Origin: an uncultured Methanosarcinales archaeon
Lineage (GTDB): Archaea > Nanobdellota > Nanobdellia > Woesearchaeales > BS150m-G63
Direction: 5' to 3'
Assembly (NCBI GenBank): GCA_964630685.1
Contig: CAZVVW010000007.1
Location: forward strand, 1-44,323
DNA length: 44,323 bases
Shown in pieces: positions 2 through 41,720 of the stretch; the stretch's first letter is position 1; each line of letters starts with the position of its first letter. The notes beneath the pieces were generated by a model. It worked only from the letters and a program-made list of their open reading frames with translations. It made no database searches and was not told the DNA's origin. A program made the position numbers and the translations under genes.

Positions 2-1114
2 ATCATATTACAAGCAACAAAGGGGTTAAGTAAATTACATGCTAAAGGTATTAGGCATAGAGACATTAAACCTTCAAATATACTTGCTTATGAGCAATAT
101 AATGAATGGGCGCTTGGAGATTATGGCACTTCATCTAATCGAGAATCAACTAAAAGCAGAAAAAATGCAGAAACTTTTCAATCGCCTGAATTTAGATTAA
201 ATAAAACAAAGGGAGTATTTAATTATGGATTTGAGGAAGATATATTCCAGTTAGGGGTTACTTATTATATGGTCCTTTCTGATGAAGAAGAAGGATTTGA
301 TAGGGGTTGGCAAAAAAAAGGAGGACCTTTACAAAACCACATTTATACCACTATTGAAAAAATGAATAAAAGTAAAGAAGAAAAATATTTCTTAAAAAGG
401 TTATGTGGAGAAAAGGCGCCAGATTCTAACAAAATACCTAAGGGAAAAACATTAGAAGACTATAGATATACTCACATAAATCAATTTATTGAAGAAGTAG
501 AAAGATATCTGAAAACGGGATCAATTAACAAACCTGTTGTTAAGAAAAAAATTAAAAAATTACCTAAACCACTTGTTAAAAAAGAAGTTGAAACTAAGAT
601 TGTTGAGGGAAATAAATATACTATTCCAAAATCTACACCTCAACCTAAACCAATTATTGAAGATCCTGCAGATCATCCTAATTATCAAAGATTTTTGACA
701 GAACACGATAATTTTTTAAATTGTTTAAATGGCGCAAAAAAAAATAATAATGGAAAATGGGGCACTATCAATCATCAAACAATTGATGGATTAATGAAAT
801 CATGTGACTCTTATTTAATTTGGGCAAATAAAAAAGATGTTCAAAAAGTTCCTCAGAGAAATGCGTTATTTGAATCTGGAAGAAATGAATATGATAAAAT
901 AAGAAATAAAGAATGGGATTTGCTTAAATCATTTGAAGAAGGACTAAATAAAAATGTTACTAAGCCAGATTTAATATATTTTATTAAAACAATATTTTTA
1001 TGGGGTCCGCCATTTACAACCCCTGATAAAGAAAGAGACAAAGGTAAAGCAAGATATGGTTTAAATGAATTAGATAAAATTCCTTATATTAAAGAATTAA
1101 AAAATGGAAAGTAA
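2..1114 (+). CDS. Hanks-type Ser/Thr protein kinase, 5'-truncated by the window edge, with a Lys/Pro-rich linker and an unknown C-terminal domain
   Basis: The frame of ORF 269..1114 is open from base 2 and reads ...KLHAKGIRHRDIKPSNIL...WALGDYG...FQSPE...EEDIFQLG. These are the catalytic loop HRDxKxxN, a DFG-like DYG, an APE-like SPE and subdomain IX D. Confidence 0.9.
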   Translation: MILQATKGLSKLHAKGIRHRDIKPSNILAYEQYNEWALGDYGTSSNRESTKSRKNAETFQSPEFRLNKTKGVFNYGFEEDIFQLGVTYYMVLSDEEEGFDRGWQKKGGPLQNHIYTTIEKMNKSKEEKYFLKRLCGEKAPDSNKIPKGKTLEDYRYTHINQFIEEVERYLKTGSINKPVVKKKIKKLPKPLVKKEVETKIVEGNKYTIPKSTPQPKPIIEDPADHPNYQRFLTEHDNFLNCLNGAKKNNNGKWGTINHQTIDGLMKSCDSYLIWANKKDVQKVPQRNALFESGRNEYDKIRNKEWDLLKSFEEGLNKNVTKPDLIYFIKTIFLWGPPFTTPDKERDKGKARYGLNELDKIPYIKELKNGK

Positions 1115-2087
1115 AAACCTAGAACAAAAACTTGAAGGGATAATTGGAGAGATTAAATCAGAAATTAAACCAAATGTAAAAAAGTTATGGGAAGAGTATG
1201 AAAATGCTTTAACTGATTGTTATGGGGCAAAATTCAAAGATTATGAGTATGAAAAGGCGTTGGGTGTATTAGAAAAGATAATCAAAGAAGAACCAAATAA
1301 TAGTAAAGTTTGGGTAAAAAGAGGTGATTTGTGTAGTTTACATCTAAAGAGAGATGATGCTTTAAGATGTTATGATAGGGCAATAGAAATAAATCCCAAA
1401 AATACAGATGCTTTAGTTGGAAAAGCAGAAGAATATGAATATGAGGATATGCCTGAAAAAGCATTGAAATTCTACAATAAAGCATTAGAAATAACGCCGA
1501 GAGATATAGATATTCTTGAAGAGAAGGCTTCTTTGTTAATTTATGATTTAGAAAGACCAAGAGAAGCGTTGAAAGTTTATAATCAAATATTGAAAATAGA
1601 TCCTGAAAATGATTTTGCGTGGAATGATAAAGCAGAAATATTGAATTCTCTTGGAGAATATGTTGGTGCACTAAAATGTTCAAACAAAGCAATAGGGATA
1701 GATTCAATTGATGGAGAATACTATTTCCATAAAGGTGTTGCTTTAGATGGACTTGGAAGATTTAAAGAAGCATATGATGCTTATTATTCTGCAGAAATAG
1801 CAAATAAAGCAGTATTTGATAAAGATAATATTCAAATACTGAATAATCAAGGTGCTGCTGCTGCTGAGATTGGAAGATATAATAGAGCGCTACGTTGTTT
1901 CGATAAAGCTTTAGAAATTTCTCCAAGATATAAAAAAGCTAAAAAAAATAAATCGATTGTTTCCAAAGCATTAGAAAAATCAAAAAAACTGCCTGATGGA
2001 TTAATTCCACTTATGAAAAAAGTGTTTTCAAAAGAGTGTGTTTCTATCCCTAAAGAACTAAAAGAAACCGCTATATATCCAATTTAA
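1104..2087 (+). CDS. TPR-repeat protein carrying the shared NLEQKLEGII leader
   Basis: Multiple 34-aa TPR motifs (A..CYDRAIEINPKN..A); N-terminus MESKNLEQKLEGIIGEIK. Confidence 0.9.
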   Translation: MESKNLEQKLEGIIGEIKSEIKPNVKKLWEEYENALTDCYGAKFKDYEYEKALGVLEKIIKEEPNNSKVWVKRGDLCSLHLKRDDALRCYDRAIEINPKNTDALVGKAEEYEYEDMPEKALKFYNKALEITPRDIDILEEKASLLIYDLERPREALKVYNQILKIDPENDFAWNDKAEILNSLGEYVGALKCSNKAIGIDSIDGEYYFHKGVALDGLGRFKEAYDAYYSAEIANKAVFDKDNIQILNNQGAAAAEIGRYNRALRCFDKALEISPRYKKAKKNKSIVSKALEKSKKLPDGLIPLMKKVFSKECVSIPKELKETAIYPI

Positions 2088-2092
2088 TTAAA

Positions 2093-3199
2093 ATGGAAAA
2101 AAACCTAGAACAAAAACTTGAAGGGATAATTGGAGAGATTAAAGAAATAGAAAAAACTGATGTAAAAATAAAATATTCTTCTAAAATAATAGAAAAAATA
2201 AAAAAAAGTACTGTTGCAAAATTAAAATGGCCTTTATTATATGTTGCGGGAACAATGATATTGGGCACAATAATACTGTACTATTCTCCTTCGCCAAACA
2301 AATCTCAAAATCACATAAAAAATAAAGGCACTATTAATGAAATTGTAATAGATTCTACTTTAACAGAAAATATAATGGGAGATTCTAAAGATTCATTAGA
2401 ATTAACTTTAAAAGATGGTCGCTATTGGCACAACAAAGGAATTAAATTACATAATTTAGAAGATTATGAAAGTGCAATTAAATGTTATGATTATGCTATT
2501 GAAATAGATTCTGAAGATGATATTGTCTGGAGTAATAGGGCTGCTGCTTTGAACAGTCTTGGAAGATTTGAAGAATCGGTTGAATCCTATGATAACTCAT
2601 TAGAAATAAGCCTTAATGACCCTATTAATTTTGGTTATAGAATTCTAAATAGTCTTAGATTAAATAACAAAGCATCTGTATTGATTGAGTTGGGAAAATT
2701 GGAAGAAGCAATTGAATCCTATGATAAAGCTATTAAACTTAATCCAGGAGATGAAGTACTCTATTATAACAAAGGGGATGTATTGGATGATCTTAACAGA
2801 AATAATGAAGCTATTGAATGTTATAATAAAGCTATTGAAATTAACCCTTTATCAGGTATATCTTGGAATAATAAAGGAAGGGTGCTAAAGGAACAAAAAA
2901 AATTGGAAGATGCCTTATATTGTTACAATAAGGCTATCGAGATAAATCAAAACAATAGTATGGCTTGGAATAATAAAGGGGATGTCTTAGAAGATCAAAA
3001 AAAATTGGAAGATGCCTTATATTGTTACAATAAGGCTATTGAAATAAATCCTAAAAATGATAGTGCTTGGAATAATAAAGGAAATATGTTTTATAGTGAG
3101 AGGAATACTGAAGATGCTTTAAAATGTTATACTATGGCTGTTGAAATAAACCCTAATAATCAAAATTCATTAAACATGATAAAATTACTGAGTGATTAA
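2093..3199 (+). CDS. TPR-repeat protein with one predicted TM helix, carrying the shared leader
   Basis: N-terminus MEKNLEQKLEGIIGEIK; hydrophobic segment WPLLYVAGTMILGTIILYY; repeated AWNNKG...CYNKAIEINP TPRs. Confidence 0.9.
   Translation: MEKNLEQKLEGIIGEIKEIEKTDVKIKYSSKIIEKIKKSTVAKLKWPLLYVAGTMILGTIILYYSPSPNKSQNHIKNKGTINEIVIDSTLTENIMGDSKDSLELTLKDGRYWHNKGIKLHNLEDYESAIKCYDYAIEIDSEDDIVWSNRAAALNSLGRFEESVESYDNSLEISLNDPINFGYRILNSLRLNNKASVLIELGKLEEAIESYDKAIKLNPGDEVLYYNKGDVLDDLNRNNEAIECYNKAIEINPLSGISWNNKGRVLKEQKKLEDALYCYNKAIEINQNNSMAWNNKGDVLEDQKKLEDALYCYNKAIEINPKNDSAWNNKGNMFYSERNTEDALKCYTMAVEINPNNQNSLNMIKLLSD
2894..3039 (+). repeat. Recent in-frame TPR unit duplication (44-bp exact repeat, 102-bp period)
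   Basis: CAAAAAAAATTGGAAGATGCCTTATATTGTTACAATAAGGCTAT occurs at 2894-2937 and 2996-3039. Confidence 0.9.
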
Positions 3200-3200
3200 T

Positions 3201-3908
3201 ATGAAAGAAAAAAATCTTGAACAAAAACTTGAAGGGATTATTGGATTTTTTAATTCAAGAAACTCAGAGAAAAGGGTTGAAAAATCAAAAAAAAATGTTG
3301 ATGAGATTAGAGATTACAGTATAGACCCTGAAATTGCTAAAAAAAGATACACTGAATATAAAATAGAGATATTTAAGAAGTTAAGTAAACTTTTTGTTGA
3401 TGGAGATATTCATTCTAGAGATGAATTAATTTCAAAAATTAATGGGTGGGCTGGCAATTATTGTAGAGATTTAAGAAAAAGTAAAGATTATGACCACTCA
3501 AGTTATATTAGGGGTTTAGTTGATTTAGGGTTACTCAAAAGAAATAAAGGCGATAGTCTATTTGAAGGGTGTGCTAAAAAAGTGAGTTATGAAGCTCCTA
3601 AAAAATTAGAAAAATCTGCTCAAGAAGATGACCTCATTATTGTAAAAAGAATGAGTGGAAGCCCCTATAACAAACATAAAACAAAAATTCTCAAAGAATT
3701 AAGTGGTGGATTTTCTCCTGGAACTGTTTATTCTAGAGATGATGCTATTTTATTAATTAAAATGCTGGCTGATGATTATGATCCTAATTTGTTAAATCAA
3801 AATGGGTATGATTATATGCATTTATTGAGAGGCTTGATAGATATTGGGCATCTCAATAGAAATAAAACTGGTACCAAATATTGTAAAGGAACTCCAAGAG
3901 ATGAATAA
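3201..3908 (+). CDS. Protein with the shared leader and two tandem DUF2087-like winged-helix domains
   Basis: ATG at 3201 gives MKEKNLEQKLEGIIG. Two internal repeats of F..G..[HY]SRD...DY....RGL[VI]D.G.L.RN resemble the DUF2087 consensus as I recall it. Confidence 0.65.
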   Translation: MKEKNLEQKLEGIIGFFNSRNSEKRVEKSKKNVDEIRDYSIDPEIAKKRYTEYKIEIFKKLSKLFVDGDIHSRDELISKINGWAGNYCRDLRKSKDYDHSSYIRGLVDLGLLKRNKGDSLFEGCAKKVSYEAPKKLEKSAQEDDLIIVKRMSGSPYNKHKTKILKELSGGFSPGTVYSRDDAILLIKMLADDYDPNLLNQNGYDYMHLLRGLIDIGHLNRNKTGTKYCKGTPRDE

Positions 3909-3909
3909 C

Positions 3910-4278
3910 ATGGCAAATAAAAATCTTGAATCTAAACTTGAAGACATTATTAGTGAGATTAAGAAGACCCCTAAAAAAACTCAAACATATGGGCCTTTTG
4001 AAAATGAGCCCTATGAAAACAATAAAAGGTTTAAAAAAAGATATGGGTTACTTAAAGAATGTTACAGAGGATTATTTCATTGTATGGATGATTTTTTTGA
4101 AGTTGATAAAAGGGGGGGAGCATTAAGAAATGTTTTTTTTGGCTCTCTTTTTGCAATATGGTTGGGAACTACAATTACATATTGTAACGGCTGTTTTAAT
4201 GAAGAATCAAATGTTCCTGCTGTAGAAGAAAGGATGGGGTATGAAAACAATTCCGACCAATATGGGGTGGTAGAATAA
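3910..4278 (+). CDS. Small membrane protein carrying the shared leader
   Basis: ATG at 3910, just after the upstream stop, gives MANKNLESKLEDIISEIKK; hydrophobic segment VFFGSLFAIWLGTTITY. Confidence 0.75.
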   Translation: MANKNLESKLEDIISEIKKTPKKTQTYGPFENEPYENNKRFKKRYGLLKECYRGLFHCMDDFFEVDKRGGALRNVFFGSLFAIWLGTTITYCNGCFNEESNVPAVEERMGYENNSDQYGVVE

Positions 4279-4279
4279 A

Positions 4280-4342
4280 ATGAATAAAAAACCTAATTTA
4301 GAACAGCAAATTGAGAGCATAGTTGAATTAAATAAAAAATGA
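4280..4342 (+). CDS. 20-aa leader-only mini-ORF (MNKKPNLEQQIESIVELNKK)
   Basis: The ATG is 1 nt after the previous stop, and its TGA overlaps the next ATG (ATGA at 4339-4342). The sequence matches the array leader motif. Confidence 0.6.
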   Translation: MNKKPNLEQQIESIVELNKK

Positions 4343-5574
4343 AACAATATAAAAACTCGCAAAACCTGGAAACCAAGGTTGAAGGGATTATTGAAAAGAT
4401 CAGATTGCCTAGTCTTGAACGTATGACTAAATTTACTGAATATGATGTTAAAGAAGATATCGTTGTTCCTAAAGGAAGATATGTTGTAGATAAAGATATT
4501 GTTATTAAGAAAGAAGGGGGTTTGAAAATTGCTTCTGGAACTGAATTCTATTTCAAAAAAGATGCTGGAATTGTTGTTTATGGATATTTACAGGCGAAAG
4601 GAACTGGAGAAGAGAGAATTTTATTTTCTTCTTATGGTGATGTATGGAAAAATATATCTATATTTAATTTAGGAGATAAAGAATCTGAGCTTGAGTACTG
4701 TGATATAACAAAAGGAACTGGGAGACTTATTGAAGATTTAATACACTCAAAAAATTCAGAAAAGTTCCTTGGAGAAATGAAAAAATATGATGAACTTGGC
4801 GGAGGCATACTTATTATTAAATCAAATCCTTTGATACAAAATTGTGATATCTATGAAAACCAAGCATTTCATGGTGGTGGAATGTATATCTGTAAATTCT
4901 CTAAACCTCCTTTAGAAAAAACAATTATAGAAAAAAACAAAAGCAAAGTGGGGGGAGGGATTTATATCCTTGAATCTGCACCTCAATTAAAAAATGGTTG
5001 TTATATATCCCAAAATGAAGCCGAATATATGGGTGGAGGTATTTGTGCTTCGAGATCTGGATTATCATTAAATAAAATCTATATAAATTCAAATAGTGCA
5101 GATTCTCCAGGAATTGGGGGGGGGATCTATTTAAGTAATTCTGAATTAAAAATGAATAGTGGAGGTATAAGCAAAAATAATTCCAAAATGGGTGGTGGTG
5201 GTGCTTGGTTTTACAAATCAATCGTGACTATAGAAAATTCAGTAATAGAGGATAATATAACAAAAGGAAGTGGTGGCGGATTATATGCTCGACTTTCTGA
5301 TATTGGTATAGAAAATGCAATAATTGAGAATAATGAAGCAAAAATTGGTGGGGGAATGTGCATAGATAAATGCGATCGATTAGCGATAAGGGAGAACTTA
5401 ATAAATTATAATACTGCTGAAAAAGGTGGAGGTGTTTTTCATAGGGGTTCAGAACCAAAAAGTTTGGGTTGGTTAAAAAATAAAATAGTATATCTTTGTG
5501 GAGACTCAATTAAATTGGATAATAATGTATCTAACAATCAAGTAGATAATATTTATGGTCCTGATAAAAAATGA
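4339..5574 (+). CDS. Right-handed beta-helix protein (Pmp-like GGG[IL]Y / NxA repeats) carrying the shared leader
   Basis: Repeated N.A..GGG[IML][YC] motifs; N-terminus MKQYKNSQNLETKVEGIIEKIR. Confidence 0.85.
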   Translation: MKQYKNSQNLETKVEGIIEKIRLPSLERMTKFTEYDVKEDIVVPKGRYVVDKDIVIKKEGGLKIASGTEFYFKKDAGIVVYGYLQAKGTGEERILFSSYGDVWKNISIFNLGDKESELEYCDITKGTGRLIEDLIHSKNSEKFLGEMKKYDELGGGILIIKSNPLIQNCDIYENQAFHGGGMYICKFSKPPLEKTIIEKNKSKVGGGIYILESAPQLKNGCYISQNEAEYMGGGICASRSGLSLNKIYINSNSADSPGIGGGIYLSNSELKMNSGGISKNNSKMGGGGAWFYKSIVTIENSVIEDNITKGSGGGLYARLSDIGIENAIIENNEAKIGGGMCIDKCDRLAIRENLINYNTAEKGGGVFHRGSEPKSLGWLKNKIVYLCGDSIKLDNNVSNNQVDNIYGPDKK

Positions 5575-5903
5575 AAGATGACCAAAATTTAGAACAAAAA
5601 CTTGAAGGGATTGTTGAACAGATAAAAGTAGATGTTTCAGAAAAAGAAAAAGATTTATTTGAAAAAGCTAAAAAATTATATTTTGAGGGAAATTATGGTG
5701 AATCAATAGAATGTTATGATAAAGCCATTGAAATAAATCCAGAATATAGCTCTGCTTGGAATAATAAAGGGAATGCTTTAGACGAACAAGGAAAATTAGA
5801 ACGAGCAATCGAATGCTATGATAAGGCAATTGAAATAAATCCTGAATTTGATATTGCTAAAAATAATAGAAGAATTGTTTTAGGAGAATTAAATGAAAAA
5901 TGA
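5571..5903 (+). CDS. Short TPR protein carrying the shared leader
   Basis: MKDDQNLEQKLEGIVEQIK followed by two ECYDKAIEINPE TPR units. Confidence 0.88.
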   Translation: MKDDQNLEQKLEGIVEQIKVDVSEKEKDLFEKAKKLYFEGNYGESIECYDKAIEINPEYSSAWNNKGNALDEQGKLERAIECYDKAIEINPEFDIAKNNRRIVLGELNEK

Positions 5904-6388
5904 AAGAAAAAGATAAAAACTCGCAAAACCTGGAAACCAAGGTTAAAGAAATTGTTGGAAAGATCAAAGGAAAAGAAGTAGAATATTTAATCAAAAAAGG
6001 AGATGCTTTTTATGGGGCAGAGAATTTTAAAGAAGCGATTGAGTGTTATGATAAAATTCTAGCGGAAGATCGGGACAATTTGGAAGTTTGGTTAAATAAA
6101 GGAAATTCATTACTTTATTTAAGGAAATTGGATGAATCTATAACTTCTTTTGATAACATTATTAAAACAGGATATTCTAAATATCGTTCTTCAGCATACA
6201 TAGGTAAAGCAGCAGCATTATACGAACAAGAAAAATATGAAGAGGCGGTGGAAGCTATGGAAAAATCAAGGATAAATGACATTGGGGTACGCTTTGCATT
6301 AAAGGATGTTAAAAAAAAGGCAGCATATCAAAAAGCAAAATGGCCTAAAAAGGTTATGTTGAATATTCAAAAACTTTTTTATGATTAA
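5900..6388 (+). CDS. TPR protein carrying the shared leader
   Basis: MKEKDKNSQNLETKVKEIVGKIK; TPR motifs EAIECYDKIL and WLNKGNSL. Confidence 0.85.
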   Translation: MKEKDKNSQNLETKVKEIVGKIKGKEVEYLIKKGDAFYGAENFKEAIECYDKILAEDRDNLEVWLNKGNSLLYLRKLDESITSFDNIIKTGYSKYRSSAYIGKAAALYEQEKYEEAVEAMEKSRINDIGVRFALKDVKKKAAYQKAKWPKKVMLNIQKLFYD

Positions 6389-6516: not shown

Positions 6517-6678
6517 AAATAAAAAAATACGCCAACGCCTGAGATTTGGAACCTACGTTTTGGGTCGTAGCCCCCCAGATGCAATATAAGTTAACTTCGT
6601 TAACTTAATTACATAGCACACTCTTTAATGGATTATCTTAATTGAAAAACACAATAAATAAAAAAATACGCCAACGCC
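6517..6678 (-). repeat. 23-bp direct repeat of the tRNA-Ser 3' end plus trailer, flanking a structured element
   Basis: AAATAAAAAAATACGCCAACGCC occurs at 6517-6539 and 6656-6678 (139-bp period). Confidence 0.9.
6541..6612 (-). other. tRNA-associated 72-nt structured element, copy 1
   Basis: The reverse complement GTAATTAAGTTAACGAAGTTAACTTATATTGCATCTGGGGGGCTACGACCCAAAACGTAGGTTCCAAATCTC aligns without gaps to 40651-40722 (56/72 identical). Confidence 0.85.
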
Positions 6679-6784
6679 CGGATTTGAACCGGGAATCCCA
6701 AAGGGACCGGCTGTTTTGGAAAAAACAAATGCTTTTTCTTTTTTCACTCAAGGCCGGCGCAATACCAGGTTATGCGACGTTGGC
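6669..6784 (-). tRNA. tRNA-Ser(TGA) with a 34-nt intron at 37/38 (intron 6713-6746)
   Basis: Acceptor GCCAACG/CGTTGGC with G73; anticodon stem CCGGC/GCCGG around CT-TGA-G; long variable arm; T arm CCCGG TTCAAAT CCGGG; relaxed BHB motif at the intron. Confidence 0.92.
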
Positions 6785-6808
6785 ATAATGGTTTAGATAA
6801 TTAAGTGA

Positions 6809-15816: not shown

Positions 15817-17436
15817 TTAATCTTGAATAAAACTAGTAAGTTTTAGATTAGTTCCTTTCACCTCGCCAAAATCATAACAAAATAAAGGTAACCTATAACT
15901 AGTCATGATTATGTTAAATTCTCTACATACATCATCTGGGTCTATTTCCCCACTTCTAAAAAATCTTGCTCTATCCCCTCCAGAAAATATTTCAAATAGT
16001 TTTTCTTTTCCGACCAGCACATTCTTTAATTCCTTAGAGTATATATCTTTTGTATCTTTTATTTCTACTTTAGGAAAACTGCCTTTGCTAAAGTAAGGAT
16101 CCTCTTTAAATTCTCTAAAAGCAGAAGAAAAAGCAATCCTAAATCTTGTAGGCATGCCACAACTTTTGTAAATAATTTCCTCAACAATGCAAAATCTATC
16201 GATTGACCCCCTTGTAGACTTCAGAAGTTCTACAACGAATTCTTGATCCATCTTTGGCTCTTTCCAACCATAATTCCAAAGCCTTATATAATTTCTACCA
16301 AATCTAAATAATTCTTTAGGGTCATTCATCAACCACAATATAGGTTTAAAATATTCCTCTGCCCTTCTTCTTTGAAGGGAATTGGCAGATAATAATGATC
16401 TTGCCATTTTTCTTACAAATATTTTAAAAGACTTTGCTGTTTTATTTTCTTCTAAATATCTTTTAACATCTATAGCAATGGAAGATTGACTACATATCAC
16501 TCCATAACTTTCTTTTTGAAGTTCATTTTGGTATATCTCCCATTCTTGTGAATCAAATGTATATCCCCCTGCTTTTCCAACAATATATGGGGCATTTAAT
16601 AAATCATTATTTTTTATATATAGATATCTCCTTTTATTGGAAAATATATCTATTAATTTTTTAAAAAAATCTAAATTATCTTGCATCCATTTAGTTTTAA
16701 CTCCAAACACAAAATCAATATGTCCATCAATGCCTAATTTAGTATAATGTCTTATTATTTCTAAGAGTCGACTTTTATTAGTTAGATTACTTAATTCGAT
16801 TATGCAACTTATCTTTTTTCCATAATCTCTACATTCAGACTTTATTTTTTTTAAAAGTGATTTTAATTCATTTTCATCACAATTTTCAATAATAAACTCG
16901 AAATTATTTAATCCAATAGCATCATTGACGCAAGAAAAAGAATCTTCAATAGCTTTATTTAATTTTTCTAAATCTCTTAGATTTTTACATTCAAGAAGGA
17001 TTGAATTTACCCTATCGATCCATGTTGCAGTTTCAAATTTGGCAACCCATCCTTTTTGTTCATGTCCTTCTATTGGCATTGCAGGCATTAAAGGTTTTGA
17101 AATAATTATTTTTCTTTTATGTTTTTCAACTGTTAATTCTTCTCCTTTTTCTAATGCGAGGGAAAAATATTTTTCTCCTTTTGAACCTTCTTTACTTACT
17201 TTTAATATCCCTTCCCCTATCATTCTATTCAAATGATATAATAATCTTCTATGTAGTCTTGCTTTATCTCTTTTTGCAATTAATAATTTTTCTTTATCAC
17301 TTATTTTACTTTTAAAACTAGCATCGATTCTTCTATATGTTTTAGGATATGTTTTTTTTAATATTTCAGAAGTAGATACCTCTGTTTCAGGATTTCTCTT
17401 AAAAATAGATAATATTTTATATTCAGTTGAATGCAT
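15817..17436 (-). CDS. 539-aa hypothetical protein with a probable N-terminal winged-helix domain
   Basis: RLHRRLLYHLNRMIGEGILKV...GEKYF has a wHTH-like pattern; the rest is unrecognised. Confidence 0.75.
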   Translation of the reverse strand: MHSTEYKILSIFKRNPETEVSTSEILKKTYPKTYRRIDASFKSKISDKEKLLIAKRDKARLHRRLLYHLNRMIGEGILKVSKEGSKGEKYFSLALEKGEELTVEKHKRKIIISKPLMPAMPIEGHEQKGWVAKFETATWIDRVNSILLECKNLRDLEKLNKAIEDSFSCVNDAIGLNNFEFIIENCDENELKSLLKKIKSECRDYGKKISCIIELSNLTNKSRLLEIIRHYTKLGIDGHIDFVFGVKTKWMQDNLDFFKKLIDIFSNKRRYLYIKNNDLLNAPYIVGKAGGYTFDSQEWEIYQNELQKESYGVICSQSSIAIDVKRYLEENKTAKSFKIFVRKMARSLLSANSLQRRRAEEYFKPILWLMNDPKELFRFGRNYIRLWNYGWKEPKMDQEFVVELLKSTRGSIDRFCIVEEIIYKSCGMPTRFRIAFSSAFREFKEDPYFSKGSFPKVEIKDTKDIYSKELKNVLVGKEKLFEIFSGGDRARFFRSGEIDPDDVCREFNIIMTSYRLPLFCYDFGEVKGTNLKLTSFIQD

Positions 17437-17532
17437 TATTCTGGAAAATTTCCTTTTTATTGAATATTGAAGACGAGTTTTTTTATAGGTCTTCTATTGA
17501 GGATTAAAAGAAAATAGATATATAAACTTTTC

Positions 17533-17650
17533 TGTTTCAGTATTTTTTTTAAAAAATAAATACGGAGATCTTTCATTTATAAATGTTTCAGGAATTTACT
17601 GAAACATTCAACTTTTTTTCCTAAAAAACGTTTATAATAACTGAAACATT
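17533..17650. promoter_or_regulatory. Candidate operator: palindrome AATGTTTCAG-N7-CTGAAACATT plus extra half-sites
   Basis: Perfect 10-bp inverted repeat at 17582-17608; half-sites at 17533-17540 and 17641-17650; located in the divergent intergenic region. Confidence 0.65.
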
Positions 17651-17707
17651 ATTCTAAATTTATTCCGATACAATCGTTTACTATGCGAAAAGTATGGGGG
17701 TAATTCA

Positions 17708-18169
17708 ATGTCATTAAACAAAAAAGAGTTAATCGTTTTGTCCCACTTAAGGCAAAACTCAAGGAAAAATTTGACCAAGATATCAAAGCAGACAGGAATA
17801 CCTGTGAGTACATTATTTGATAAATTAAGAAAATACCAACAAGGAGTTATAACTAAACAGACTGTTCTTTTGGATTTCCAAAAATTAGGGTTTGATGTGA
17901 AAGTGAAAACACTATTAAAAATAGCTAAAGATCAAAAACAAGAATTAACTAATCACTTAATTAATAGTCCGAGTGTTAATTCAATTTCATCTGTGACAGG
18001 GGGATTTGATTTATTAATTGAAGCAATATTCAGGAATCTAAAAGAATTGGAGATATTTTCAGACCAATTAGAACAATTTAATATCAAAAAGAAAGAGGAA
18101 TTTTTTGTGGTAGAAGATATTAAGAGAGAATCTTTCTTAGCCCACCCAGAATTAATCGAATTGGTTTAA
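17708..18169 (+). CDS. Lrp/AsnC-family transcriptional regulator
   Basis: LRQNSR..LTKISKQTGIPVSTLFDKL HTH; LDFQKLGF and VTGGFDLL motifs. Confidence 0.93.
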   Translation: MSLNKKELIVLSHLRQNSRKNLTKISKQTGIPVSTLFDKLRKYQQGVITKQTVLLDFQKLGFDVKVKTLLKIAKDQKQELTNHLINSPSVNSISSVTGGFDLLIEAIFRNLKELEIFSDQLEQFNIKKKEEFFVVEDIKRESFLAHPELIELV

Positions 18170-40460: not shown

Positions 40461-40488
40461 CAAATTAAATCTTCTAAACAGTGATTGT

Positions 40489-40595
40489 GGGCCTGTAGCT
40501 CAGTCTGGTTAGAGCGCTGGTCTTATATGACTACGCTTTAAACAAAAAGCACCTAAGACAGCCAGAAGTCGCGAGTTCAAATCTCGCCAGGCCCA
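40489..40595 (+). tRNA. tRNA-Ile(TAT) with a 32-nt intron at 37/38 (intron 40528-40559)
   Basis: Acceptor GGGCCTG/CAGGCCC; D stem GCTC/GAGC; anticodon stem CTGGT/GCCAG around CT-TAT-A; BHB central helix CTTA/TAAG; T arm GCGAG TTCAAAT CTCGC. Confidence 0.93.
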
Positions 40596-40753
40596 CCTTT
40601 ATATTAATTAATTATTTTAAATTAATGAGATTAATCAAAAAAATTACAAAGTGATTAAATCAATGCAGTTGATTTACATCGCTTCTCTGTGGCTACGGCA
40701 GAAAACGTAGGTTCCAAATCTCGCCAGGCCCACCTTTATATTAATTAATTATT
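40578..40753 (+). repeat. 39-bp direct repeat of the tRNA-Ile 3' end plus trailer, flanking a structured element
   Basis: CAAATCTCGCCAGGCCCACCTTTATATTAATTAATTATT occurs at 40578-40616 and 40715-40753 (137-bp period). Confidence 0.93.
40651..40722 (+). other. tRNA-associated 72-nt structured element, copy 2
   Basis: GTGATTAAATCAATGCAGTTGATTTACATCGCTTCTCTGTGGCTACGGCAGAAAACGTAGGTTCCAAATCTC; homologous to the reverse complement of 6541-6612. Confidence 0.85.
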
Positions 40754-40775: not shown

Positions 40776-41483
40776 ATGATAACCAAACTAAAAGAGGAAT
40801 TACGAAAACAGGCAACCCCTGAACAAGCAAAGATATTGCAGAGATTCTTTAAAACAGGTAAAGGAGAATATGGAGAAGGAGATGTTTTTCTAGGAATAAA
40901 AGTTCCAATACAGAGAAAAATAGCAAAAAATTATTTGGGAATTTCGTTAAGAGAATTGCAAGAACTCTTAGATACAAATATACATGAATATAGATTAACT
41001 GCATTAGTTATTTTAATTAATAAATATAATAATTCAACTGAAAAAGAAAAAAAAGAAGTTTATGAATTTTATATTCAAAATCTGGAAAATATAAACAACT
41101 GGGATTTAGTTGATATTTCATGCCCCAATATTGTAGGAAATTATCTTTATTTTCAACCAATAATCAGTGTAAAAAAAATATTGCAACAACTTGCTATCTC
41201 AAAGAATCTTTGGAAGAGAAGAGTTGCGATAATTTCAACACTTTTTTTTATTAAACAAGGTAGATTCGGAGAAACATTAGGTATTTCTCAGATGCTTCTA
41301 AAAGATGAGCACGATTTAATACACAAAGCAGTTGGGTGGATGTTAAGGGAAGTTGGAAAAAAGAATCAAGAAGTAGAAGAAAGATTCTTAAATAAATACT
41401 ACAAACAGATGCCAAGAACTATGTTAAGATATTCAATTGAGAGATTCAGCGAGGAAAAAAGAAAGTATTATATGAAAAAATAA
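40776..41483 (+). CDS. DNA alkylation repair protein (AlkD-like HEAT-repeat glycosylase)
   Basis: FFKTGKGEYGEGD.FLG, NNWDLVD, LW.RR and IHKAVGWMLREVGK motifs. Confidence 0.92.
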   Translation: MITKLKEELRKQATPEQAKILQRFFKTGKGEYGEGDVFLGIKVPIQRKIAKNYLGISLRELQELLDTNIHEYRLTALVILINKYNNSTEKEKKEVYEFYIQNLENINNWDLVDISCPNIVGNYLYFQPIISVKKILQQLAISKNLWKRRVAIISTLFFIKQGRFGETLGISQMLLKDEHDLIHKAVGWMLREVGKKNQEVEERFLNKYYKQMPRTMLRYSIERFSEEKRKYYMKK

Positions 41484-41532: not shown

Positions 41533-41607
41533 GCCCCTGTGGTGTAGTCCGGTCAATCATTCCAGATTTTCGATCTGAAGACCCGGGTTCAAATCCCGGC
41601 AGGGGCA
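41533..41607 (+). tRNA. tRNA-Glu(TTC)
   Basis: Acceptor GCCCCTG/CAGGGGC; anticodon loop TT-TTC-GA; T arm CCGGG TTCAAAT CCCGG; TATA at 41500-41507. Confidence 0.93.
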
Positions 41608-41720
41608 CTACTTTTCACATTTTTCTTTTGAATTAAAAAACCCATCAAAAAAGAAAAAATAAATATGATTGAAGAAATATTTAAAAAACATTATTAATTA
41701 TTCTCAAAATAAAGTATTAA

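Follow-up and report, generated by a model that had tools for sequence, protein, structure and literature searches.

A small non-coding element inserted behind tRNA genes of an uncultured archaeon carries retroposon-like junctions

Several described systems place foreign DNA at tRNA genes or leave direct repeats around small inserts. In archaea, integrative elements that target tRNA genes through SSV-type and pNOB8-type integrases leave att-site repeats. Retroelements of Dictyostelium also target tRNA genes, and target-primed copying, known from eukaryotic SINE and LINE retroposition, is recognized by a fixed and structured 3′ end, a long target duplication of variable length, 5′ truncation, and carry-over of donor flank. 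Casposons and Cas1-mediated spacer integration produce long target duplications of fixed length and involve terminal inverted repeats, and some casposons target tRNA 3′ ends. The PATEs of the IS200/IS605 family and the REP/RAYT systems insert 3′ of a fixed 4-5-nt motif and are not known to duplicate their target. Finally, mobile-element-driven disruption of tRNA genes is the subject of PMC3293823, and the MITEs of prokaryotes are the subject of PMC11602168.

Here, we analyzed an element located directly behind tRNA-Ile(UAU) in a 44,323-nt stretch of archaeal DNA (the window), which belongs to a 936-kb genome that is 96.6% complete (G000). A congener, G001, was used for empty-site comparison. 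We found no description of such an element in the literature. The locus is organized as follows:

40489..40595, forward strand: intact tRNA-Ile(UAU), the target gene (Rfam tRNA match, 63.2 bits; aragorn -i, Ile(tat), i(40,32))
40528-40559, forward strand: 32-nt intron of tRNA-Ile(UAU) (aragorn with introns)
40578..40616, forward strand: copy 1 of the target-site duplication, 39/39 identical to 40715-40753
40617..40714, forward strand: inserted element of 98 nt, absent at the orthologous G001 site (alignment of 25 copies)
40623-40720, forward strand: match of covariance model R1 to the element, 104.4 bits
40715..40753, forward strand: copy 2 of the target-site duplication (BLAST, whole genome)
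40776..41483, forward strand: AlkD-like DNA alkylation repair gene, a neighbor outside the element (Pfam PF08713, E = 2.4e-63), syntenic in G001

The tRNA gene was missed by aragorn in default mode and called with the intron option. A preliminary description of this DNA had reported a 39-bp duplication made of the 3′ half of the T-loop, the acceptor strand, and 21 nt of trailer, and BLAST against the whole genome reproduced it exactly: the direct repeat extends from T-loop C56 through the 3′ strands of T-stem and acceptor stem to A73 (40595), and the last 21 nt of copy 1 are trailer (40596-40616). The element itself contains no open reading frame in its 98 nt and is 5′-truncated relative to full-length copies of ~125-135 nt. 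In G001, the end of a PolB gene, tRNA-Ile(UAU) (98% identity), and the AlkD-like gene (76%) are colinear with those of G000, and the tRNA runs straight into ...CCCAC TTTATATTA TCCCAATA..., with neither element nor repeat. The flank 3′ of repeat copy 2 (CCAATA...) resumes as in this empty site. Since the congener has the same tRNA and AlkD-like gene without the insert, we conclude that the G000 lineage acquired these 98 nt by insertion, which duplicated 39 bp of the target. The neighbors are core genes and form no island; the earlier view that the copies border accessory genes does not hold here, as the AlkD-like and PolB genes are syntenic in G001, where the tRNA-Ile(UAU) site is empty.

Two side observations concern the same locus. 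At the G001 orthologue of window position 40488/40489, a 624-bp insert (L047, G001:C23 ~17256-17879) lies precisely where the promoter/leader meets the 5′ end of tRNA-Ile(UAU). By eye, it appears to have small open reading frames on both strands; it is lacking in G000 and may represent a different type of mobile cassette that uses tRNA boundaries. In independent Logan assemblies, a 158-nt unitig covering repeat, element, and repeat (40587-40744) was found with 0 mismatches in 3 runs of 2 studies, one of which may be the source of the window; as the Logan graph has k=31 and the 39-nt repeat exceeds k-1, repeat order and empty alleles are invisible to unitigs alone. Mean word depth of the element unitig compared to flanking contigs was 5.6 versus 9.0 (X1), 4.7 versus 5.4 (X3), and 4.2 versus 4.8 (X4), a lower depth that might reflect some empty alleles in the population, which unitig depth cannot show.

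As the preliminary description had proposed, the element has a counterpart within the window, a homologous element with a 23-nt exact repeat behind tRNA-Ser(UGA):

6668..6785, reverse strand: tRNA-Ser(UGA) with intron, carrier of the other window copy (aragorn with introns)
6540..6655, reverse strand: element behind tRNA-Ser(UGA) (R1 match 6543-6640, 109.2 bits)
6553-6543, reverse strand: tail GGTTCCAAATC of this element
6517..6539, reverse strand: decayed duplicate of the tRNA-Ser 3′ end plus 13 nt of trailer (= 6656-6678, 23/23 identity)

The T-stem part of this downstream duplicate is altered. An orthologous copy is present in G001, and the site is empty in G003, from another genus. In both species, these copies have two additional bases, TC, behind AAATC; the dinucleotide also occurs at Ile- or Lys-type T-stems and suggests carry-over from a donor. 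The preliminary description had used the Ser copy as evidence on the element terminus; the TC of this copy is an extra dinucleotide of the orthologous copies, not the family terminus. In the vicinity of this copy, window positions 1100-6100, previously read as a "leader array", include at least six similar 60-nt stretches and 102-nt periodic repeats, which look like paralogous repeat-protein genes and not like a CRISPR leader or array.

Next, we evaluated the distribution of the element across the genome. Using R1, built from 7 copies (alignment A2), 10 matches were obtained in G000, each of which (10/10) is situated 3′ of a tRNA gene and in the orientation of that tRNA. Carriers represent 9 of the 35 tRNA genes: Ser-UGA, Ile-UAU, Ser-GGA, Trp, Ser-GCU (two in tandem), Arg-CCU, Phe (degenerate), Tyr-GUA, and Lys-UUU. 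The element is thus not a universal tRNA terminator, in agreement with the earlier note that tRNA-Glu at 41533 lacks it (no R1 or R2 match at 41533-41608). The last two carriers were labelled Asn and Leu by aragorn, and their anticodon arms read Tyr-GUA and Lys-UUU. With aragorn -i, G000:C2 c68454-68578 was called Asn(GUU), c67889-68019 Leu(CAA), and G000:C3 70471-70586 Pro(AGG), for anticodon arms of Tyr(GUA), Lys(UUU), and initiator Met(CAU), respectively; these labels are wrong because non-canonical introns mislead the caller. Both window carriers contain introns, but the link that this had suggested is not apparent across the genome (5/9 carriers versus 9/26 non-carriers with introns, Fisher p = 0.43). 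In a model-free scan for 12-nt tRNA tails, a second exact copy was detected at 6 tRNAs only, 129-156 nt away and each time preceded by the element tail, and no copy was found beyond 156 nt in G000 for the 29 of 35 tRNAs scanned (6 being without the T-loop motif used).

Filled and empty sites differ between the two congeners. R1 yielded 15 matches in G001, partly at other tRNAs than in G000: copies at Ser-UGA and Ser-GGA and the distal Phe copy are shared, while Ile-GAU (two different subfamilies in tandem), iMet (Pro according to aragorn), Gly-UCC, Ser-CGA, Cys, and two extra Phe copies are filled in G001 only. An antisense insertion in the 5′ part of tRNA-Val, with 24 nt duplicated, is likewise restricted to G001. 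In addition to Ile(UAU), filled/empty pairs were thus established for tRNA-Ile(GAU), Val(GAC), iMet, Gly(UCC), and Cys. In a metagenome population resembling G001, contigs show one more copy at Ser-CGA and a tandem arrangement at Ser-GGA. At tRNA-Leu(GAG) of G001 (L020 1375-1690, G001:C10), ~25 nt of 5′ sequence are followed by unrelated DNA, an element, and a degenerate 3′ end, and this gene, intact in G000 (G000:C3 27400-27487), is likely a pseudogene made by insertion. Two other arrangements were seen in G001. The tRNA-Ser(CGA) gene is inverted relative to both flanks (L030, G001:C9, versus G000:C13 16856-16946), the G001 version having an element behind it, and two tandem partial copies consisting of hairpin HP1 and linker only (L033/L034, G001:C24 11632-11801) occupy a non-tRNA site after a gene end, adjoining a terminator-like hairpin.

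Across the order, the family has a patchy distribution. No R1 match was obtained in G002 (79% complete), nor in 96 of the 101 relatives searched. A second model (R2) of the 38-nt 3′ module, searched in 151 genomes of the order, detected the module in 9 genomes and 8 of 144 genera, and in none of the other 142 genomes. Copies from other genera end at CTGTAG plus 2-4 target-matching bases, with 10-25 nt of non-T-loop targets duplicated. These targets include the end of a putative SRP54-like protein gene (read by eye) and, in antisense, the 5′ end of tRNA-Glu, and some copies abut tRNA 3′ ends in antisense. In G056, from another genus (L009, L012, L015, L018, L121), the hairpin-linker-pseudoknot module forms the end of a longer repeat that comprises several small hairpins, with at least 5-8 occurrences between housekeeping genes and no obvious flank duplication. 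An exact-terminus pattern scan of genome_contigs returned 20 stretches, 9 of them in one Woesearchaeota MAG; among the other 11, 10 were R1-negative and 1 (L054) was positive. The same scan of viral contigs gave 0 matches. At L054 1-300, an element copy and a tRNA 3′ end are located ~150 nt upstream of a putative 23S rRNA 5′ start (by eye), at the beginning of a 665-kb contig from a record labelled Methanosarcinales, for which the label or binning may be wrong.

The family consists of non-coding elements of 65-135 nt with a constant order of parts: full-length copies start with a 5′ hairpin, and in every copy a 5′ box precedes hairpin HP1, from which a linker leads to an H-type pseudoknot that has ...CTGTAG or ...CGTAG as its end; in this genus, a T-loop-like tail comes next. 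In the Ile(UAU) copy these parts are:

40649..40684, forward strand: hairpin HP1, 16 bp with one bulge (RNAalifold; pair counts)
40686..40711, forward strand: H-type pseudoknot, with stem S1 pairing 40686-40689 with 40699-40702 and stem S2 pairing 40692-40697 with 40706-40711
40710..40720, forward strand: T-loop-like 3′ tail GGTTCCAAATC, overlapping the start of repeat copy 2 and the same behind different tRNAs

For HP1, 96.9% of cells are paired, 4 pairs are changed on both sides, and the covariation score was reached by 0/500 shuffles; in other subfamilies, the sequence is wholly different and the hairpin is retained. The pseudoknot is formed by the linker pairing with the loop of a hairpin HP2, through the pair types CUG:CAG, GGG:CCC, CCG:CGG, and UCG:CGA. 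Covarying pairs in S1 are 13:29 (CG 14, GC 6) and 14:28 (GC 16, CG 4, UA 1; alignment A3, 22 copies). Again, 0/500 shuffles reach the pseudoknot score and slid controls score far lower, with the qualification that pair-count shuffles, for HP1 and pseudoknot alike, ignore the kinship of copies, and that relatedness inflates such tests. The modelled covariation in both structures points to a functional form that is probably single-stranded, and the fold of the element is more stable than that of shuffled sequences (z = -2.5).

The tail is element-borne, because the copy behind tRNA-Trp ends in TTCCAAATC while the T-loop of tRNA-Trp itself is TTCGAATC, and because the Arg and Tyr copies share a variant tail, GGTCTC.... 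The preliminary description had thus rightly assigned the terminus to the element, but not its identity: the shared end is GGTTCCAAATC, not CAAATCTC. Terminal inverted repeats were not found in the 3 copies analyzed, which showed only internal hairpins and AT-rich trailer palindromes. Several trailers begin with T5-T12 runs, which would end tRNA read-through, a point against the mechanism proposed below. At gathering score, Rfam matched only tRNA and SSU rRNA in the window, and between 40560 and 40790, with E up to 10, nothing appeared beyond chance save a tRNA 3′ end resembling tmRNA. Other identities were considered and rejected: a C/D box or H/ACA sRNA (box motifs absent by eye), a TATA box within HP1 (the Arg copy retains the hairpin, not TTTATAT), and an archaeal (BHB) tRNA intron (the element is placed after a complete tRNA). 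A helix closing the 5′ box on the tail appears in the fold of the Ile copy and is not conserved elsewhere.

The junctions follow a consistent pattern. Among the R2 matches of G000 and G001, 19/21 are flanked by an exact repeat of 11 nt or more, at a spacing of 110-171 nt, and no repeat pair spaced by more than 171 nt was found. On the 3′ side, the joint stays at about T-loop position 57/58, and wherever the downstream copy borders the element, that border falls within the T-loop. By contrast, the 5′ joint varies between 0 and 48 nt past the tRNA: it lies 0-1 nt past the discriminator at Ser-GGA, Ser-CGA, and the distal Ile-GAU copy, 21 nt past it for the Ile(UAU) copy, and 48 nt for the proximal Ile-GAU copy. 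Duplications in the genus accordingly range from ~17 to 65 nt. Within one subfamily, 5′ truncation is seen across iMet, the proximal Ile-GAU copy (copy 1), and the Ile(UAU) window copy. The second tRNA ends decay, as observed at Ser-UGA, at Ser-GGA and Gly-UCC in G001, and at iMet, and judging from their sequences these downstream ends are no functional halves.

We interpret the repeat pair as the trace of a small mobile element, non-coding and strand-specific, that inserted recently by homology-anchored copy-in from a single-stranded donor copy, and assign this reading a probability of about 0.55. It builds on the insertion, duplication, polymorphism, structures, and junction pattern observed above; for the template type, the priming step, and the enzyme, we infer the following course. 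The template would be a single-stranded copy of a donor element, probably RNA, whose T-loop-like 3′ end would base-pair within a tRNA gene, at its T-loop. DNA synthesis, primed at this site, would then copy the element toward its 5′ end, often stopping early, and the new strand would be joined again at a position that varies from 0 to 48 nt downstream of the tRNA 3′ end. With the 3′ joint in the T-loop and the 5′ rejoining beyond the tRNA, the stretch between the two joints (the 3′ half of the T-loop, the acceptor strand, and some trailer) would come to lie on both sides of the element. An intact tRNA would stay upstream, with a functionless partial copy downstream, and the direct repeats would then permit tandem amplification and loss. 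Insertions that do not restore the tRNA would probably be purged, so that the intact tRNA may always be kept through survivorship. Because the 3′ junction is in the T-loop, homology to the T-arm plausibly guides insertion, as the preliminary description had suggested.

Taken together, the fixed 3′ joint, variable 5′ joint, truncation, flank carry-over, and structured 3′ end fit target-primed or template-switch synthesis, and they do not fit cut-and-paste transposition or site-specific recombination. In structure, the element resembles SINEs and other non-LTR retroposons, with which it has in common the fixed 3′ end, a duplication of variable length, 5′ truncation, and donor-flank carry-over. 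It also shares with them a tRNA-like tail, structure at the 3′ end, and bursts of small, non-coding subfamilies present in many copies. Unlike SINEs, it occurs in a prokaryote, has no linked LINE or reverse transcriptase (RT) and no correlation with RT, ends without a poly(A) or simple-repeat tail, and has an RNA intermediate only by inference. By structural criteria, though not by enzymatic ones, it is a SINE-like retroposon. We know of no case of this junction signature from archaea or bacteria. Tentatively, these elements could be the first SINE-like retroposons of prokaryotes or, equally, the product of a new host-enzyme-driven "homology-anchored copy-in", in which target-primed synthesis would copy an RNA, equipped with a pseudoknot at its 3′ end and a T-loop tail that it has captured, into tRNA genes; if the first 3′ end were subsequently lost, T-loop introns and split tRNA genes of DPANN archaea could arise in this way.

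The element could instead be a passive by-product of replication or repair, arising when forks stall at highly transcribed tRNA genes and a microhomology-driven template switch leads into an existing copy and back at the T-loop, with no dedicated machinery and no function for the element structures. Both junctions do look homology- or microhomology-mediated, targets are at gene ends, and our searches for an enzyme were negative in G000, with no RVT_1, Y1 transposase, Cas1, or TnpB above cut-off, which also counts against the copy-in that we favor. So does the distribution of RT, which does not track the element: RTs were found in 2/9 genomes with the module and 30/142 without it, both order searches being assumed to share the same 151 genomes. 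G001 encodes one RT (L035 760-2250, G001:C3; 347 aa), which is lacking in G000. It follows a non-coding leader of ~430 nt and, from this layout of a short open reading frame after a long non-coding leader, looks like the RT of a diversity-generating retroelement; there is no R1 match at this locus and no element nearby. Genes beside the G056 and G073 copies are housekeeping genes or have no Pfam match. A passive origin is nevertheless unlikely, as one family has been recopied repeatedly, with 25 or more copies in the two congeners and additional gains among strains, and compensatory changes preserve HP1 and the pseudoknot across subfamilies and genera, which argues for selection on the element itself.

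Selection could also act on behalf of the host, if the element were a useful small RNA or a processing or termination module co-transcribed with tRNAs, the partial tRNA end being part of its function. In this genus, the element always has the orientation of the tRNA and immediately follows the gene, which would agree with such a role, as would the conserved structure and a fold better than that of shuffles. We consider this decidedly unlikely: presence varies between congeners and within a population, relatives of the element occur at non-tRNA sites and in antisense, and R1 and R2 matches are absent from most relatives (96/101 and 142/151, respectively). Tandem multiples, 5′-truncated copies, and decaying duplicates of tRNA ends are equally at odds with a host module, and tRNA-Leu(GAG) of G001 looks destroyed.

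Mobility as a single-strand DNA transposon of the IS200/IS605 or REP-RAYT type, driven in trans by an HUH Y1 transposase, would account for hairpins and strict strand specificity, and these tiny, hairpin-based, strand-specific repeats resemble the element in general form. One Y1_Tnp gene is indeed found in G001, the genome with the most and youngest copies. G000 has no such gene, and the hairpins flanking the G001 gene, an IS200-like locus, are unrelated to the element (best R1 E = 0.12 there), i.e., there are no matching Y1 transposase ends. Moreover, duplications of 10-65 nt are the rule here, including 19/21 copies in the genus, and that family is not known to make any, which renders this explanation very unlikely. 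Two further DNA-based systems invite comparison. MITEs are similarly small, non-coding, non-autonomous, intergenic, and structured, but the element differs in having no terminal inverted repeats, a long and variable duplication instead of a short and fixed one, and, within the genus, strictly one orientation to the target. Casposon and CRISPR Cas1 integration resembles it in the long target duplication and the tRNA 3′ end, and differs in the variable length, the lack of terminal inverted repeats, and the lack of Cas1, which was not detected in any of the three congeners.

The preliminary description had taken the copies for possible residual att sites, that is, attL/attR scars of a virus, plasmid, or island integrated into tRNA genes and relieved of its cargo by later deletion. 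An intact tRNA gene followed by a direct repeat of its 3′ part is the footprint of tRNA-targeting integrative elements in archaea, for which tRNA genes are preferred targets as well. In contrast to att repeats, the present ones surround a ~100-nt insert without integrase or cargo (65-135 nt across the family), homologous at more than 15 different tRNAs; the same element thus recurs at many tRNAs, with 5′-truncated copies and other-genus relatives at non-tRNA sites. The left border of the repeats is constant and the right one is not, with lengths of ~17 to 65 nt, and no integrase fragment lies inside or beside a repeat pair. Two PF00589 tyrosine recombinase genes are located on other contigs of G000, and such genes occur in all three congeners, including the one without an element match. 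Neither distant tRNA-tail copies nor repeat pairs beyond 171 nt were detected, neighbors are syntenic core genes, and viral contigs gave 0 matches. Likewise, larger islands bounded by the element in relatives, as the preliminary description had envisaged, were not found, nor were larger cargo-bearing relatives with the same repeats, either in the G000 tRNA-tail scan (29/35 tRNAs) or in viral contigs. An att origin is thus highly improbable.

Finally, Logan unitigs break at the 39-nt repeat, which a k=31 graph alone cannot order, but an assembly artefact at a short repeat is a negligible explanation given that 9 tRNAs of G000 share one architecture, which recurs in G001, in separate metagenome contigs, and in 3 runs from 2 studies.

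Overall, a retroposon-like signature is present here in genomes of ~0.9 Mb, some of them without any reverse transcriptase or transposase found. The partial tRNA copies that it leaves can mislead the annotation of tRNAs and att sites in metagenome-assembled DPANN genomes. If confirmed, the mechanism that we favor, homology-anchored copy-in from a single-stranded donor copy, would represent a new way of DNA movement in prokaryotes, and would provide a testable route by which tRNA genes gain insertions, duplicated ends, pseudogenes, and perhaps T-loop introns.
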